In this document: positions 3,354-36,500 of the stretch, in pieces | Position numbering within the stretch: the first letter of the stretch is position 1 | How the letters are laid out: every line of letters starts with the position of its first letter | Source: Arcobacter sp. | GTDB lineage: Bacteria > Campylobacterota > Campylobacteria > Campylobacterales > Arcobacteraceae | Length of the DNA stretch: 64,000 nt | Assembly (NCBI GenBank): GCA_003252105.1 | Contig: QKDL01000085.1 | Coordinates: forward strand, 1,106-65,105 | Direction of reading: 5' to 3' | Translations under genes and position numbers: made by a program | Notes under the pieces: generated by a model | The model's input: the letters and a program-made list of their open reading frames with translations, nothing else | Database searches by the model: none | What the model was told of the DNA's origin: nothing

Positions 3354-3382
3354 TTTTATTCCTATACAAATTTTAATACATA

Positions 3383-4309
3383 TTAAGATATGTATTGTAA
3401 TATGTTTTTATATACACCATCTAAAAGTCTATTTCTTGCTTCTATTGATGCCCAACCTATATGTGGTACAATTATAAGTCTATCTTTATTTATAATTTTA
3501 AGTAGAGGATTTTCTATTTTTATTGGTTCCTCACTTAAAACATCTAGCCCACAATAAAGCTCTTTAGAGTCAATTATAGTTGCTAAATCTTTTTCATTTA
3601 TAATTCCACCACGTCCAGTATTAACTAAAATAGCTCCATCTTTAATTTGATTTAAATTTGTAAAATTTAACAAATTTAAAGTATTCTCATTTAATGGTGC
3701 ATGTACTGATATTATATCAGAATTTTTTAATAATTCATCAAGTGATACTTGTTTAAACTCATCATTGTAATTTGTACCACTTGTTGAATAATAGTTTACA
3801 TTACATCCAAAGCTTTTAGCAATATTTGCAACTTTTGTTCCAATTGAACCTAAACCAATTATTCCCCAGTTTTTGTTCTCTAATTCGAAAAATGGTTTGT
3901 CTAAATTTGTGAATATAGGAGATTGACTCCATTGACCACTTGATACAATATTTTTATAATAATCAATTCTATGTATTAAGTCTAATACCAGTGTAAATGT
4001 TACTTGGGCTACACTTGATGTTGAATACCCTGCAACATTTTTTACTTCTATTGCTCTATTCTTTGCTTCTTGTATATCAATATTATTTGTTCCTGTTGCT
4101 GCAACACATATTAGCTTTATATTAGAATTCTCCATAATATATTTATCTATTACTACTTTGTTTGTTACAACTATATCTGCATCTTTTACTCTATTTAGAG
4201 TTTCTGTAGGAGTTGTAGTTTCATAAACTATTAATTGACCAATCTCTTTAAATCTCTCTAAAGAGATATCTTTACCTAATGTATCTCTATCTAAAAATAC
4301 GATTTTCAT
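3383..4309 (-). CDS. D-2-hydroxyacid dehydrogenase (glycerate dehydrogenase-like)
   Basis: GIIGLGSIG, HAPL, VNTGRGG, LDVLSEEP, PHIGW. Confidence 0.9.
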   Translation of the reverse strand: MKIVFLDRDTLGKDISLERFKEIGQLIVYETTTPTETLNRVKDADIVVTNKVVIDKYIMENSNIKLICVAATGTNNIDIQEAKNRAIEVKNVAGYSTSSVAQVTFTLVLDLIHRIDYYKNIVSSGQWSQSPIFTNLDKPFFELENKNWGIIGLGSIGTKVANIAKSFGCNVNYYSTSGTNYNDEFKQVSLDELLKNSDIISVHAPLNENTLNLLNFTNLNQIKDGAILVNTGRGGIINEKDLATIIDSKELYCGLDVLSEEPIKIENPLLKIINKDRLIIVPHIGWASIEARNRLLDGVYKNILQYIS

Positions 4310-4383
4310 TGTGTATACCTTTACATATTTATATATGTAAAGGTATCAAAATTTTATTAAATTGAAGTTTATTTTAATATTTA

Positions 4384-5793
4384 CTATTTTTTTGAGAATA
4401 TTTGTTCAGCCCATTCAGTAATTGGACCTCTTAAAACCTTTTGAAGTTTTATAGCAAATACTTTTACAAGTTCATTACTTGTTTTAGTAGATTTTAATAG
4501 TGTTGTTAAAGAGTTTGTATATTTATTTACGTAAAAATTGTCAATTTGTTTATTACTTCCTAATATAACAACTTTACATGTATTATCTATTCTTGATAAT
4601 ACCATTTGCATAGTTTTATTTGACATATTTTGTGCTTCATCAATAATAACAAAAGCATTTGATAATGTTCTTCCTCTCATCTCTCCTACCCACATAGTTT
4701 CTATTGAATAATTTTGAATAAGTTGTTCAACTCTTAAACTAACCTCTTTATCATCAAGTTCAGTAAAGTTTTCTGCACTTTTTTTGTTTGAATGTTTCTT
4801 TTTATATTCACTTCTAATGATATAATCCAAACTATCCATTAGTGGATGATTATATATTCTGAACTTTTCTTCAAGTCCAGGAAGATATCCCACATCTTCA
4901 CCTTTATCAAGTGATTCTATTGAGTTTCTAATATATATAATTCTTTGAAAATATTTTTGTCTTACAAGCTTTAGTGCCCCACTTAATGCCAATAGTGTTT
5001 TACCACTCCCTGCTTTTGCTTCAACTATTAAAACATTATAATAATGTGCTAAAATTCCATGGGAAAAAAACAGTTGTTCTTTATTTAAAGGGATAATTAC
5101 TTGATCTCTTAAATTCCCTTCATCAATTAAACATACTCTTTTATTCTGAACAGTTGCTAATATAACCTGGTCAGAGCTTTTCACTTTAAAACAATAACAA
5201 AAATTATATGGTTGATAATCTTCATCAAAGTCAGTAATCAAAGCATTGTCTAAATACTCTGTATCTTCAAACTTTACTTCAACGGTTTTAATAAACTCAT
5301 AATTAAATTCATCTTTATTTGAACCATTTAAAGAATCAGTTTTTATATCTAAAGATACTGCCCTTGTTCTTGCCATGATATCTAAAGATAAAAATGTAGT
5401 TTCTGTTTTATAATAACTATTTGCAAAACTTGAAATCTCTAATATTTTTCTATCATTGATTATATTTAAAGGTACATTTTTTATATTTGTATCATAATTA
5501 TCTTTTGATATTATATCAACAATTGCACTTTTTTTATCAAATACTTCTAATCTTATAATCTTACAATTTTCATCTTTTTTTGAGCTAATAATCTCTGAGT
5601 TTTCAAGTATTCTTGCAAACTCTCTAGCTTGAAAATTTATCTCATCAAAACCACTTTTTTTAGTATCAATCTCATCTAAAACAGTTTCTGGAAGTACAAT
5701 TAAGTTTTTTGATTCATCACTTAGTTTAAATATATTTGTTGCATCTTCTAATAGTATATTTGTATCTAATACATATATCTTCTCAAAACTCAT
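4384..5793 (-). CDS. PIN-PhoH family ATPase
   Basis: N-terminal VLDTNILL PIN domain, AKAGSGKT Walker A, MRGRTL, IIDEAQN. Confidence 0.88.
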   Translation of the reverse strand: MSFEKIYVLDTNILLEDATNIFKLSDESKNLIVLPETVLDEIDTKKSGFDEINFQAREFARILENSEIISSKKDENCKIIRLEVFDKKSAIVDIISKDNYDTNIKNVPLNIINDRKILEISSFANSYYKTETTFLSLDIMARTRAVSLDIKTDSLNGSNKDEFNYEFIKTVEVKFEDTEYLDNALITDFDEDYQPYNFCYCFKVKSSDQVILATVQNKRVCLIDEGNLRDQVIIPLNKEQLFFSHGILAHYYNVLIVEAKAGSGKTLLALSGALKLVRQKYFQRIIYIRNSIESLDKGEDVGYLPGLEEKFRIYNHPLMDSLDYIIRSEYKKKHSNKKSAENFTELDDKEVSLRVEQLIQNYSIETMWVGEMRGRTLSNAFVIIDEAQNMSNKTMQMVLSRIDNTCKVVILGSNKQIDNFYVNKYTNSLTTLLKSTKTSNELVKVFAIKLQKVLRGPITEWAEQIFSKK

Positions 5794-6311
5794 TTAGCCA
5801 CCTCTTCTTTAGGTTTTTTAGTTAATACTTTATATACAATAAATCCTCCAACTACTAAAGTAATTACTGTAAATAGTATAGAAAAAGTTTTTGTGATAAC
5901 ATATCCTACAATTAATAAAGATAAAATAGTAGGTACTTCATTGTAAGCTCTAAAAAAACTTCCTTTTTTCGAGAAGTTTCCTTTTTTTAATTCTTTTCTA
6001 AAATACTCTAAAGATAAACTATAAACAACTAAAATAATGACAAAAAGTAGCTTTGCATGGAGCCATGCACCTTTTAATAACTCAGGTTGTAAAATAATCA
6101 TTGCAATTCCACTTAAAATAGTTGCAATCATTGCAGGAAAACCTATAACTTTATAAATCTTCTCTTCTTGTATTTGAATAACTTCTATAAACTCTTTTTT
6201 ATCTTTATGTTCAGTATGATATACAAATAGTCTTGGCTGATAAAAAAGCATTGCCATCCATGATAAAACTGCCATTATGTGAAATACCAATATCCATAAA
6301 TAATACTCCAT
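5790..6311 (-). CDS. hemJ: Protoporphyrinogen oxidase HemJ
   Basis: HIMAVLSWMAMLFYQPRLFVYH, WLHAKL, FRAYNEVP. Confidence 0.9.
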   Translation of the reverse strand: MEYYLWILVFHIMAVLSWMAMLFYQPRLFVYHTEHKDKKEFIEVIQIQEEKIYKVIGFPAMIATILSGIAMIILQPELLKGAWLHAKLLFVIILVVYSLSLEYFRKELKKGNFSKKGSFFRAYNEVPTILSLLIVGYVITKTFSILFTVITLVVGGFIVYKVLTKKPKEEVAK

Positions 6312-7495
6312 TAGTCCCCTTTTATCTTTTTAATCCATTCATTTAAAGTTTTTTCATATGCAATATTTTTGGAATTATAAAAACTTAAATTCTCTTCTAA
6401 ATATTGCTGTTGTACCCAGCCACCATAGTCATGTGGATATTTATACCCTATATGTAAACTGTCTAGATGTTTTGGTATATTTAAGATTTTACCATTTTTA
6501 ACTTCATTTAGCGCTTTATTGATAGCTTCATACGCACTATTTGATTTGGGACAAGAAGCAAGATAAATTACACATTGTCCCAATAGAATTCTACTTTCTG
6601 GATATCCTATTTTTGAAGTGGCTAGCATAGTGCTAACTGCTAAGTTAATTGCATTTGGGTTTGCATTTCCAATATCTTCACTAGCAAAGATAACCAATCT
6701 TCTAGTTATAAATTCTACTGTTTCACCACCTTCAATCAATCTAGCTAAATAATAAAGTGCAGCATCTATATCTGAACCCCTAAGAGATTTTATCATCGCA
6801 CTTGCTAAATCATAATGGCTATCTTTTGAACTAACTCCATCTGCAATAGCATTTGTTCTTAAACCTTTTAGAGTTTCAAAAGTTACAATATTATCTATTT
6901 TGATTGCAAAATTCAAAAGGTTCAACATAGCTCTTGCATCTCCACCACTAGAAGTTATTAGATACTCTTTTGCTTCCTCTTCAATCTCTAGTTTCTCCTC
7001 AACTATTGCCCTATTTAAAATCTTTTCCATATCCTGTTTTGTAAAGGCTAAAAACTCATATAAAAATGATCTAGACCTAATTGCATTAGTGAGTGTAAAA
7101 AATGGATTCTCAGTGCTTGCACCTATGATTATAGCATCATAATTTTCCATAATTGGCAATAACACTTCTTGTTGGTTTTTTGATAACCTATGTACTTCAT
7201 CAATGAAAAGTATTGGTTTAATTAAAGAGTCTTTATATCTAGTAAATACTTTTCTTAACTCTTCAACTTTTATTGATGTAGCATTAAAATAAAAGTAATC
7301 ACTTCCTATTGATTTTGCAATGATTTTTGCTAAAGATGTTTTGCCAGTTCCTGGTTTACCATAAAAAAAAAGATGAGGAATCTCTTTTTTTATAATAAGT
7401 TTATAAAGTGGTTTATTTTTACCTATAATATGAGATTGTCCCACAAACTCTTCTAAAGTTTGTGGTCTTAGATAATTTGATAAATCATTCATCAT
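6311..7495 (-). CDS. rarA: Replication-associated recombination protein A (RarA/MgsA)
   Basis: LRPQTLEEFVGQ, GKPGTGKT, FIDEVHR, MIKSLRGSD, ASEDIGNA. Confidence 0.92.
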   Translation of the reverse strand: MMNDLSNYLRPQTLEEFVGQSHIIGKNKPLYKLIIKKEIPHLFFYGKPGTGKTSLAKIIAKSIGSDYFYFNATSIKVEELRKVFTRYKDSLIKPILFIDEVHRLSKNQQEVLLPIMENYDAIIIGASTENPFFTLTNAIRSRSFLYEFLAFTKQDMEKILNRAIVEEKLEIEEEAKEYLITSSGGDARAMLNLLNFAIKIDNIVTFETLKGLRTNAIADGVSSKDSHYDLASAMIKSLRGSDIDAALYYLARLIEGGETVEFITRRLVIFASEDIGNANPNAINLAVSTMLATSKIGYPESRILLGQCVIYLASCPKSNSAYEAINKALNEVKNGKILNIPKHLDSLHIGYKYPHDYGGWVQQQYLEENLSFYNSKNIAYEKTLNEWIKKIKGD

Positions 7496-34360: not shown

Positions 34361-34897
34361 TTATCTTCCAACTTTAAATCCCATCACCTTTTCTTCTGTT
34401 TTTTTGGTATCTTCTAAAATCTGCTGTAGATACTCAAGGGCTAGTTTTATGTTTTTTCTATTTTCTAATGTTTGGTCTTTATGAAGTTTATTATCCTCTT
34501 TTATAGTATTTATCTCTTTTACTAAACTTTCATAAGATAAAGCAAATTCACGTATTTTTGTAAATGTTCTCATTATCGCTTTTGTAGTTTCAATTGCTAT
34601 ACTACTATTAATTACTGTTGCTAGCATATATACTCCTTGCTCAGTAAACACAAAAGGTAAAGTTCTAGCTCCACCCCAACTTGAAGTGACAAATTGGCAC
34701 TTCAAGATTTCAAACTCTTCTTTTGATAATTGAAACATAAAATCCTCATCAAAACGCTCAATATTTCTTTTAACTTGTCTGTTTAAATATTTTGTTTCTA
34801 CACCATATAGTTTAGCTATGTCTGATGCAAGCATAACTTGTTTGCCTCTTATATTATAAATCTTTGATTGGATTTGCTCAGATGGTAGATTTATCAT
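34361..34897 (-). CDS. ORF6N domain protein
   Basis: IRGKQVMLASDIAKLYGVET..LNRQVKRNIERF..DFMFQL; PFVFTEQGV. Confidence 0.88.
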   Translation of the reverse strand: MINLPSEQIQSKIYNIRGKQVMLASDIAKLYGVETKYLNRQVKRNIERFDEDFMFQLSKEEFEILKCQFVTSSWGGARTLPFVFTEQGVYMLATVINSSIAIETTKAIMRTFTKIREFALSYESLVKEINTIKEDNKLHKDQTLENRKNIKLALEYLQQILEDTKKTEEKVMGFKVGR

Positions 34898-35044
34898 GAT
34901 TACTCCTAAATTTTTTTGAGTATATCATTATAATTTAAGTAATTATATTTTTATTGCAAAGTGTAATGTTTTAATGTATTGGAAGAAGATTTAAACAGTG
35001 CTCAAATATTTTGATAATAGCTTTAACTGTATGCAGTTGTCTTG

Positions 35045-35285
35045 TAGAGCGAGGCTCTCCGCTTTCTCACTTTTTAATTGTAAAAAGTAAGACAAAAAGC
35101 AACCAGACGAGTTGTTGAAGCTAAAGTTCCCTACAGTTCTTAAATAAGTTTTCTGACCTGCGGGACTCCTTCCTAAACGTGACATTCAGTCACCTTTATC
35201 CAGTCAAACATCTCCTCGGTCTTTTCCGAAAATTATTTAAAAACTTCCGGCTTCAACAAAGTCTGGACAAATTCTCTAGCCACGA
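35045..35285 (-). ncRNA. Structured non-coding element A (multi-stem)
   Basis: long-range stems 35250-35266/35103-35121 and 35218-35244/35136-35158, hairpin GTGAC/GTCAC; G-U pairs favour the minus strand; GC-richer than flanks. Confidence 0.5.
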
Positions 35286-35354
35286 ACTTTCTGATGTAAA
35301 TTTAACATAACACCAATTCAAATAAAATGGTATAAAAAATTGCAAAAGTCAATT

Positions 35355-35570
35355 TCCCCTTTCCCGCATTTGAGAAGCCGAGTGTTTATTTATCTCTTTT
35401 GAAAACAAGTGACTAAACTGTTTGAAGCGTAAAGAAATGTGCTGGGAGCACATTTTAGCAAGTTTTTAGGCACTCAAAAGAGATAATTAATAAACGAGGG
35501 AACCTTCGGCTTCGAAACCTGTGGGATGGTTTCTTTGCTACTTTCTTTTTCATAAAAGAAAGTCGATAGA
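35355..35570 (+). ncRNA. Structured non-coding element B, same architecture as A
   Basis: GAAGCCGA/TCGGCTTC, TATCTCTTTTGA/TCAAAAGAGATA, AAATGTGCT/AGCACATTT, ACTTTCTTTT/AAAAGAAAGT. Confidence 0.5.
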
Positions 35571-35606
35571 AATTAAGACATATAGTAAAAGTTTATTCAA
35601 AACATA

Positions 35607-36500
35607 CTATACATTAACTTTCTCTAACTCCTTATATTTTTCAATTATAGTTTCATTTTTACCAAATGCTTTTATATTATATTCCAATAATCGTTTTTCT
35701 ATATCATTATTTAATCCTATATGTTCAAAAAATTCATAATTTTCTACTAGTTTTTTAAATTTTCTTTTTCCAATAGTTCCTAAACAATGATAAAATAAGA
35801 ATTCTAATTCGTCTTTAGTAAATTGTGCTCTATAAATATTTATATATTTTTGTTTATCTTTAATGTTACTTTCATTTATAAGTTTAAGTATTTGATAAAT
35901 TAAACCAAAATATGTACCTGTAAACTTTTCATGATATTTATTAAATAAATCATAATCTATTTTAAACTTTTCAGTTTTTAAACTTTTCAAATATCCTGAG
36001 ATTACAGTAATCCCTTTTTCTTTAATATTAGCAATATCTTTCATTTATTCTAATAATGAATCATCTACATATCCACCATTTACTAATACTTTACCACTTT
36101 TTGTAGTTACTATTTCAAAAAAGAATGATTCCCTTGTATGTAGAAAAACATTATTTAATTGAAAAAATGTGTTTTCAAATATTTGTAACTTAGTAGCTTT
36201 ATTTTTTAACTTTAATGATTTTGCTTGTTTTTTTTGATATTCACCTGAATTTTTAAATTCTGTTACTACTTGATTTAATTCTTTGGATTGAAGTTCAATA
36301 GTTGTCAATAAAGCAATAAAAGCCATAAATGCTAAAATAGGGTTTAATACTCCTCCAAAATAGTCTCCAAACTCTGCCCAAGTAGATTGTTTTCCAGACA
36401 ATCCATATATACCAAACTTAGCTAGATAAAGTATTAACACTGAAAGTATAATAAATACTGCTACAAACTTATATCTTTTCAGTTTTGTTTCTAAATCCAT
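35607..36500 (-). pseudogene. Putative phage abortive-infection protein (putAbiC-like) split by an in-frame TAA at 36045-36047
   Basis: FGDYFGGVLNPIL..FENTFFQL in the 5' ORF, YRAQFTKDELEFLFYHCL in the 3' ORF; both ORFs share one frame. Confidence 0.65.

Follow-up and report, generated by a model that had tools for sequence, protein, structure and literature searches.

Two back-to-back arms in an Arcobacter intergenic gap are diverged copies of a strongly folded, apparently undescribed non-coding element

What occupies the 709-bp gap between an ORF6N gene (34361-34897, minus strand) and a putAbiC-like gene (35607-36044, minus strand) in contig QKDL01000085.1 of Arcobacter sp. (assembly GCA_003252105.1), and is it more probably used as RNA or as DNA? 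The window analyzed here is the 64,000-nucleotide stretch of that contig from position 1,106 to 65,105, and coordinates without a contig or locus handle refer to it. A reading made from the letters alone, hereafter the sequence-only reading, had placed in this gap two back-to-back elements, A and B, taken to be diverged copies of one structured element without a named family. We find that A (minus strand) and B (plus strand) are indeed diverged copies of one strongly folded, apparently undescribed non-coding element, and that the A/B pair is itself one copy of an interspersed unit of ~590 bp rather than a local duplication.

The folding energy of A is -82.1 kcal/mol, compared with -60.0 +/- 4.2 for its dinucleotide shuffles (z = -5.25), and that of B is -73.4 kcal/mol, compared with -47.8 +/- 4.0 (z = -6.46); none of 200 shuffles was as good in either case, as expected from the claim of a genuine structure. 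The fold common to both is a rod of ~165 nucleotides (nt) closed by its own ends and followed by a 3′ hairpin/pseudoknot, with the rod of A at 35100-35267 on the minus strand and that of B at 35361-35529 on the plus strand. The ordered skeleton that the sequence-only reading had described (GAAGCC, AT-rich stem, TGTTTGA, variable hairpin, return stem, AGGGAAC..GCTTC, 3′ hairpin) is present in the two arms. Joint use of MAFFT and RNAalifold misaligned the long helices; the A and B types were analyzed separately and linked via a covariance model, R1, which has 165 positions and was built from A-type arms only. Its calibration was short and its E-values are rough, and over the whole 64 kb it returned exactly two matches, A at 167.8 bits (E = 3.8e-39) and B at 58.6 bits (E = 1.8e-12), each over the full model length and on the strand previously named. 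Recovery of B by a model trained on A, together with all 19 B-type arms of the same genome, upholds the view that the two are versions of one element, although only about 45% of columns are identical between A and B in a MAFFT alignment. In its own genome R1 found 33 arms, all full-length, comprising 14 of A type (111-179 bits) and 19 of B type (34-93 bits), and in every paired unit the B arm lay on the strand opposite its A arm. Because the own-genome A-type copies are 85-96% identical to A and the B-type copies 77-96% identical to B, the split between A and B predates the spread of the unit.

Base changes in the rod follow the pairing. In alignment A3, which holds 22 A-type arms from 17 genomes, RNAalifold returned a single long rod of 51 pairs, 32 of which have compensatory changes. 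Paired cells make up 95.4% of the total, versus 81.4% in shuffles and 36-52% when partners were slid, and the 32 pairs altered on both sides compare with 18.2 +/- 2.0 in shuffled and 10-14 in slid controls; none of 500 shuffles attained any of the observed measures. The B-type alignment, A7, has 28 predicted pairs with compensatory changes in 18. The covariation anticipated from two copies thus extends to the family, and so does the strand marking by G-U pairs: A3 contains 50 G-U or U-G cells versus 7 A-C or C-A cells (33 versus 7 after removal of one fixed pair), and an A arm scored with R1 on both strands gives 163 bits on the predicted one versus 15 bits on the opposite one. This asymmetry points to selection acting on the minus strand for A and on the plus strand for B. 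The most conserved columns of both A3 and A7 are the apex strands CUGUUUGA and GAGUU, of which TCAAACAG/AACTC is the exact reverse complement.

A BLAST search of the own assembly (3.02 Mb, 96 contigs) with the region showed that the repeat unit spans about 35005-35602, and that the genome has 12 full copies with the same limits and about 10 that are partial or lie at contig ends. In an alignment of 12 units the ends resemble terminal inverted repeats, because the two arms are homologous in inverted orientation, and a common TCAAATATTTTGA-type palindrome is found where units meet tail to tail. Solo arms and tail-to-tail pairs also occur, and therefore the basic module is one arm with about 55-75 nt of upstream sequence. 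The parts of the unit in the window are as follows.

35005-35602, unstranded: complete repeat unit, made up of the A arm (minus), a shared centre, the B arm (plus) and AT-rich palindromic tails at both ends; limits from own-genome BLAST
35100-35267, minus: A arm rod core, from the full-model R1 match, the consensus fold and the pair counts
35100-35267, minus: outer helices of the A rod, P0 CCAGAC/GUCUGG and P1 UUGAAGC/GCUUCAA, with the AGGGAA bulge and the long AT-rich P2
35100-35267, minus: inner parts of the A rod, P3 GACC/GGUC, GGA/UCC, the apex loop UGUUUGA/GAGU and the P4 hairpin
35066-35104, minus: A arm 3′ knot module, from alignment A5 and three-segment co-variation
35104-35100 and 35098-35094, minus: 5′ segments of the A knot, GGUUG and the U5 tract, respectively
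35091-35082 and 35075-35066, minus: A knot hairpin, CUUACUUUUU / AAAAAGUGAG
35081-35076, minus: A knot hairpin loop ACAAUU, able to pair with GGUUG
35039-35065, minus: second 3′ hairpin of the A arm, AGAGC/GCUCU, with a conserved CAAGAC at its end (A5 helix 3)
35268-35360, unstranded: central region separating the two rods, in which each arm has promoter-like motifs (minus strand, TGTTATGTT and AAGTTCG; plus strand, TGGTATAAA) in blocks conserved among copies and genera at a fixed distance from the rod
35361-35529, plus: B arm rod core, with the architecture of A in different helix sequences and the apex CUGUUUGA/GAGUU; from the full-model R1 match and A7 covariation
35526-35563, plus: B arm 3′ knot module, from tract variants and a switch in loop pairing
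35526-35529 and 35530-35536, plus: 5′ segments of the B knot, AUGG and the pyrimidine tract UUUCUUU, respectively
35540-35549 and 35554-35563, plus: B knot hairpin, ACUUUCUUUU / AAAAGAAAGU
35550-35553, plus: B knot loop UCAU, complementary to AUGG
35564-35602, plus: B arm tail (..AAGACAUAUAGUAAAAGUUUAUUCAAAAC), the inverted homologue of the A tail (35005-35038); from the 12-unit alignment

A terminator scan flagged the plus strand at 35046-35065, a terminator-like site that faces into the element from the A end. To the right of the pair, the putAbiC-like gene is split into two open reading frames (ORFs), 36045-36500 and 35607-36044, such that the stop of the first directly abuts the ATG of the second; the membrane segments lie in the first and the PF16872 match in the second. 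The nrdB and nrdA genes are found further right.

The 3′ hairpin noted by the sequence-only reading belongs to a larger pseudoknot/triplex-like module. After the rod come, in order, GGU(U/G)G, a U/C tract and a hairpin with a U/C 5′ strand and an A/G 3′ strand; most A arms add a GC hairpin that has CAAGAG or CAAGAC at its end. In alignment A5 (24 sequences of the 3′ region) the first hairpin is 95% paired, with 6 pairs altered on both sides, and the second, AGAGC/GCUCU, is 87% paired, with 4 pairs altered on both sides. The helix that joins the hairpin loop to GGU(U/G)G carries a U-A to G-C swap in 8 of the 24 sequences, every cell at that position being paired, and it also shows changes of G-C to G-U; in B arms the loop pairing alternates between AUGG:UCAU and GUGG:UCAC. 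Covariation in both helices supports an H-type pseudoknot as the predicted topology. In addition, the linker tract and the purine strand always match in parallel register (TTTTT/AAAAA, TTTCTTT/AAAGAAA, TTTTTTT/AAAAAAA, TTCTTT/AAGAAA, TTTCTT/AAAGAA), and the B knot variants UUUCUUU/AAAGAAA and UUUUUUU/AAAAAAA shift jointly in all three segments, which makes a parallel U.A-U / C+.G-C triplex plausible. The metagenome locus L247, which has a perfect 6-bp loop helix, is informative because its tract UUUUCUU repeats the hairpin strand UUCUUUU in mirror, not in direct, orientation, an arrangement that favours the triplex reading, with a parallel third strand.

No Rfam family accounts for the element. 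Rfam 15 gave no match at gathering thresholds anywhere in the window, and at E <= 10 the region 34850-35700 gave only four matches, with E = 0.56-9.8 and scores far below gathering, in agreement with the earlier remark that no named family could be assigned; literature searches on Arcobacter repeats, miniature transposable elements with inverted repeats (MITEs) and small RNAs returned nothing on this element. A small peptide of a type I toxin-antitoxin system was ruled out by the lack of a conserved ORF: start codon, length and frame all vary among copies. Where A has an AUG (AUGUUUGA), B has CUG, and other copies have UUG or lack the codon; the frames are of unequal length and are shifted by hairpin insertions. 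Phage or plasmid origin was likewise set aside, as viral contigs, phage records and plasmid records held no matches.

The search for a mobilizing enzyme gave similar results. The RAYT/IS200 Y1 transposase was rejected: PF01797 occurs in 31 of 65 arm-carrying genomes versus 39 of 119 genomes that lack arms, and it is absent from 34 of the 65 carriers, among them complete genomes with many arms, G006, G023, G010 and the own genome with its 33 arms. A reverse transcriptase or retron was rejected on like grounds, with RVT_1 in 25 of 65 carriers versus 48 of 119 non-carriers, none in the high-copy genomes G017, G002, G003 and G006, and no reverse transcriptase adjoining any arm examined. No insertion sequence (IS) with matching ends was found that could be the parent of a MITE. 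IS110 was rejected as a parent element, since in G017 (Halarcobacter sp. FB10N2-1) it interrupts arms at a fixed site, as a guest, and the own genome has no IS110. The G017 insertions, each of an IS110-family element of 1.3 kb, are in four B arms at the same position of the knot linker (GGGATGGTT | TCTTTGCTAC): L048 10476-11774, L051 ~5503-6805, L054 ~5061-6359 and L055 ~3357-4659. The transposase has 327 residues with DEDD_Tnp_IS110 and Transposase_20 domains, and its gene is preceded by a non-coding leader of ~270 nt that could encode a bridge RNA aimed at the B-arm site.

The element is common in its family and patchy within it, which fits the earlier proposal of a family of structured non-coding RNAs or non-autonomous mobile repeats. 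BLAST found the unit in 20 of 25 Halarcobacter species, the own genome included, with tandem arrays in one complete genome. R1 matched 65 of 184 Arcobacteraceae genomes, in 11 of 22 genera; arms number from 0 to at least 15 per genome, many genomes having at least 15 and 119 having none, and they are often paired head to head or arrayed in tandem. At least three genera have A/B pairs of the head-to-head kind, which suggests that the pairing is old. Only 3 genomes of 301 sampled in the order and 1 genome among 401 sampled in the phylum gave R1 matches outside the family, and weak matches in other Campylobacterales families retain the apex CGAGGAcUGUUUGA ... GAGUUCCGCAG on rods with unrelated stems. 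When public collections were scanned with the pattern TGTTTGA-N15-45-GAGTTYCGCAG, 27 of 80 metagenome loci so obtained were matched by R1, on contigs of 36-65% G+C; these have long rods with unrelated stems around the same apex, several with a knot downstream. None of 76 viral loci picked by the same pattern was matched; these are chance matches without a rod and served as the control. The apex is thus shared beyond Campylobacterota, and recognizable forms of the element appear to exist in unrelated bacteria far outside that phylum, the taxonomy of the metagenome contigs being inferred from base composition alone.

Comparison of sites between species shows positions that are filled in some and empty in others. 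Other positions are old and common to several species: an arm lies downstream of rplT in genomes G000, G017 and G007, downstream of nrdB in the window, G019, G024 and a second genus, and beside an MTHFR-like gene (the C25 locus) in six species, a site that is empty in four. The gap between an HD-protein gene and a Zn-ribbon gene (the C84 locus) is filled in G000 and G002 and empty in G017, G023, G009 and G003, where the flanks are contiguous and R1 finds nothing even with filters off; the empty site holds TTCAAATTGCAATATTTTT, weakly like the TCAAATA motif at the ends of the element. A strain-level empty site was sought via the ORF6N protein, and the search returned one 1.6-kb contig only, which ends at the repeat; many arm copies are likewise at contig ends. 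G168 adds about six rRNA operons to the old positions: its arms (L137, L139-L143) sit immediately downstream of these operons, converge on them and have 92-100% identity to one another, which suggests that they were homogenized together with the operons; the identical copies are not usable for setting the limits of the element, as the repeat that flanks them is the rRNA operon itself. The proposed link to defence cargo stands in a loose form: accessory or defence-like neighbors are frequent (ORF6N, putAbiC, HicB, DUF2726, a DUF4143 ATPase, kinases, an HD protein), but housekeeping neighbors are found too (rplT, nrdB, carA, rRNA operons). Flanking genes are convergent with 8 A arms and co-directional with 3, and convergent with 4 B arms and co-directional with 7.

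In G017 the arms form arrays 3-5 kb apart around accessory genes, and a promoter-like module of ~290 nt comes between the outermost B arm and the cargo that it immediately precedes, such as DUF6414 with a Ser/Thr kinase. Wherever this 'C module' was seen, its place is after the outermost B arm, and 10-35 nt separate its end from a variable ORF; it is present in G000 (C28:36345-36764 and C25:20425-20593) and in G017 (L047-L051 and L056), and it is absent from the window and from most copies. With a TATATAAT box, an inverted repeat of 9 bp (ATACATTAT..ATAATGTAT) and a ribosome-binding site, it looks like a portable promoter/operator for cargo genes. Smaller insertions are found in the arms themselves. 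A mini-insert of ~23 nt, CTCAAAGAGAGTG(C/T)AA(G/A)CACA(A/G)G, with two tiny hairpins, stands directly after T-runs at varied positions in arms of several genera, as well as at two sites outside arms (G000 C28:34507, C93:183, C1:9214 and C91:53483; the A arm of L073; the B arms of L072 and L084), and a second, ATGTAATCCTGCTTGCAGGC, is found in A arms at varied positions (C19, C91, C25:979, L020). Both have the appearance of minute insertions, mobile or templated. A tyrosine recombinase beside the A end of the C4 unit in G000 (C4:2160-2350) is reduced to its ~60 C-terminal residues (..HTLRHIFASHLAINGTPIFTIKELMNHKDIEQTMRYAKL..), and it appears that the unit or a neighbor replaced the rest of the integrase gene.

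We propose, with moderate confidence, that the element is a gene module, complete in itself, whose product would be a stable structured RNA, and that the module behaves, in addition, like a repeat that spreads. The two diverged paralogues would be transcribed outward, head to head, from the shared centre of ~90 bp, and each transcript would close into the ~165-nt rod, whose helices are free to vary around a fixed apex (CGAGGAcUGUUUGA / GAGUUCCGCAG) and AGGGAA bulge. The H-type pseudoknot would form next, with its pyrimidine tract in the groove of the U-A-rich hairpin, triplex fashion, and may cap the RNA against 3′ exonucleases, and the invariant loops may be where a partner docks whose gene lies elsewhere in the genome. 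As DNA, the module acts as a non-autonomous repeat that has multiplied into intergenic gaps, often beside an existing copy so as to yield pairs and tandem arrays, and often at the edges of accessory-gene islets; in some genomes the ~290-nt promoter-like module links the outermost B arm to variable cargo genes. Its spread could have occurred by recombination at the AT-rich palindromic tails. The transcription, RNA stability, trans-acting partner and mode of spread in this scheme we infer from sequence features. Outward transcription is suggested because A and B arms alike, including solo arms and those of other genera, have extended -10-like motifs at a fixed upstream distance (for instance TGATAGTTT, which precedes the rod by about 20 nt), and because one solo arm, in G019, ends with a hairpin and U-run of the kind expected for a terminator. 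Solo arms are also preceded by a shared block, GA(A/T)TGAAT(C/T)TCCA(C/A)TTTTATAATAATT, which contains a consensus TATAAT and is maybe an alternative promoter module; it was seen at the solo B arms C25:1934 and C25:1011 of G000, at L048 10210-10250 and upstream of two A arms in L077.

Several observations weigh against this proposal. Neither arm of the window has a canonical intrinsic terminator after its 3′ module, and the GC hairpin of A is terminator-like on the opposite strand only. Hairpins, pyrimidine triplexes and G-T wobbles of the same kind can equally arise in single-stranded DNA, and therefore the strand asymmetry is no proof of RNA. Most knot tracts are near-symmetric, such that an alternative Watson-Crick pairing, acting as a switch, fits equally well, and once the knot hairpin is fully formed no linker remains to cross the short helix. 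At the one filled and empty site that was aligned there is no clean target-site duplication, the filled/empty comparisons are between species, and no trans partner or mobilizing enzyme turned up.

The possibility of a repeat that works at the DNA level, as a giant relative of the REP/BIME/REPIN repeats or hairpin MITEs, is doubtful but has to be taken seriously. The fold would form in single-stranded DNA, for example on the lagging-strand template or in transfer, where a recombinase, transposase or replication protein of the host or encoded in trans would read it, and any transcripts would be incidental. Arrays of alternating orientation with distinct head and tail linkers are BIME-like, and the ends resembling terminal inverted repeats, the TCAAATATTTTGA palindrome at tail junctions and the similar TTCAAATTGCAATATTTTT at the empty site all suit such a repeat, as do orthologous sites that are filled or empty according to species. 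IS110 elements are known to target repeats, and the identical position of IS110 in the four G017 B arms is in line with that habit. Triplex-forming DNA repeats have been documented in bacteria (PMC4666352), which also speaks for this alternative. The Y1 transposase data argue against it (none in the own genome, G006, G023 or G010; 31 of 65 carriers versus 39 of 119 non-carriers), as do the conserved promoter-like motifs of the arms and the one proper terminator, and arms of ~165 nt plus a knot, with invariant loops across distant taxa, are far larger and more intricate than REP hairpins. We regard as improbable a portable cis-acting boundary element, which would insulate and drive neighboring genes through inward-facing terminators at the two ends, centrally placed outward promoters and, ahead of acquired cargo, a structured leader, and the RNA of which would have no role in trans. 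The terminator-like site that faces into the A end would suit it, as would the many arms that converge on the 3′ ends of strongly expressed genes (rplT, nrdB, carA and the rRNA operons of G168) and the passage in G017 and G000 from an outermost B arm to the ~290-nt module, with its TATATAAT box and ribosome-binding site, and on to variable cargo ORFs. But flanking genes are of mixed orientation (A arms 8 convergent and 3 co-directional, B arms 4 and 7), B runs head-on into putAbiC in the window, the ~290-nt module is missing there and from most copies, and an insulator needs neither an apex loop kept across phyla nor a knot module.

A known housekeeping RNA overlooked by Rfam in Campylobacterota, for which 6S RNA is the obvious candidate, is very hard to credit. 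The rod shape, a size similar to the ~180 nt of 6S, and the arm downstream of nrdB in several species and a second genus would be compatible with it, and the Rfam 6S model fails on most genomes of the genus. The 6S RNA of C. jejuni and H. pylori is encoded upstream of purD (PMC3847290). Likewise, the only 6S-like match in the genus is directly upstream of purD (L088 1501-1681, i.e. G001 C16:51122-51302; weak at 29.9 bits under the Rfam 6S model, yet full-length) and is the likely 6S RNA gene; R1 finds nothing at that site, and 6S RNA was rejected. In addition, the rod has no central bubble of the 6S type, the number of copies varies by genome from 0 to over 30, and the element is missing from 119 of the 184 genomes of the family, an absence that excludes any other housekeeping role as well. 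A bolder alternative, which we consider unlikely, is that the rod, apex and knot are the working part of an undescribed nucleic-acid system that spans phyla and spreads with no protein gene linked to it. A catalytic or recognition core would then be provided by the 24 invariant nucleotides of the apex, for example as a new self-cleaving or self-ligating ribozyme or as the dock of a universal host enzyme, and the 3′ triplex knot would protect or prime the molecule. The A/B pair of Arcobacteraceae, with its outward promoters, would be a two-RNA version that marks, and perhaps mobilizes or regulates, accessory-gene islets.

The proposed RNA module draws its interest from textbook covariation, from a 24-nt loop that is invariant while every surrounding helix changes and from its possible triple-helix knot. 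Because the element is abundant in Arcobacteraceae and recurs in relatives of very different base composition, some conserved machinery must read it, and the identity of that partner could reveal a transposase-free mode of DNA spread, a new bacterial RNA-stability device or a new ribonucleoprotein. To our knowledge, few large structured RNAs or repeats are still uncatalogued in cultivable bacteria, and the triple-helix knots known so far come mostly from telomerase, a handful of riboswitches and RNA-stability elements of eukaryotes or viruses. The repeat also has practical consequences, as it breaks assemblies (many copies are at contig ends), marks the edges of accessory and defence islets and is a preferred landing site of one IS110 element. 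Halarcobacter and Arcobacter can be cultured, so that the question is directly testable.

By their defining features, the element is none of the Rfam families, 6S RNA, REP/RAYT repeats, retrons or type I toxin-antitoxin loci, and comparison with the systems closest to it shows what it shares with each. Like the REP/BIME/REPIN repeats of Proteobacteria, which are mobilized by RAYT Y1 enzymes, it is non-coding, intergenic, multicopy and folded on one strand, with two sequence types that alternate in inverted orientation with distinct linkers, form arrays and are targets for IS110-family insertion. Its arms are, however, about 5-8 times longer (~165 nt plus a 3′ domain of ~40-90 nt, versus palindromes of ~20-40 nt) and have promoter-like motifs and invariant internal loops, its copies number tens rather than hundreds, and many carrier genomes have no resident Y1 transposase. 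The hairpin MITEs (Correia/NEMIS, ERIC/IRU, RUP, Nezha) also have ends like terminal inverted repeats, no coding capacity, variable presence in relatives and the ability to carry promoters and terminators; here, by contrast, no parent IS and no clean target-site duplication were seen, the internal loops and the base pairing, not the ends, are what is best conserved, and the basic unit is a single arm instead of the inverted pair. The intrastrand triplex DNA repeats TM_ECO/BoxC/PIT (PMC4666352) are abundant between genes, possibly adopt a three-stranded fold from one strand and are linked to variable regions, as is the element, but they are G/C-rich purine-motif sequences of ~40 nt that lack a rod or apex loop, whereas the element has a short pyrimidine motif attached to a 165-nt rod.

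Among RNAs, the triplex H-type pseudoknots and 3′ stability elements (the telomerase RNA pseudoknot, SAM-II and preQ1-II aptamers, PAN ENE, MALAT1) have the same order of segments as the 3′ module, namely a short helix, a U/C-rich linker, a U-A-rich hairpin and a loop that pairs back to the short helix. As in those RNAs, the linker, pyrimidine and purine strands change jointly across the aligned sequences, from putative U.A-U to C.G-C. There is no sequence homology, the 3′-side linker is absent here if the hairpin is fully formed, and the context is a bacterial repeat rather than telomerase, a riboswitch or a poly(A) clamp. The large orphan RNAs (HEARO/IscB omega-RNA, ROOL, GOLLD, raiA) were likewise found by covariation, are multicopy in some genomes, often lie near mobile or accessory DNA and had no assigned function when first described; unlike them, the element is a simple rod plus knot that no Rfam model matches, and it has no consistent protein-coding neighbor, be it IscB, TnpB or another. 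The head-to-head pairing of A and B, the central promoter region and the arrays may be specific to Arcobacteraceae. In its manner of working, the element would seem closest to a hybrid of two kinds, a BIME/MITE-type repeat and an orphan structured RNA with a telomerase-like knot.

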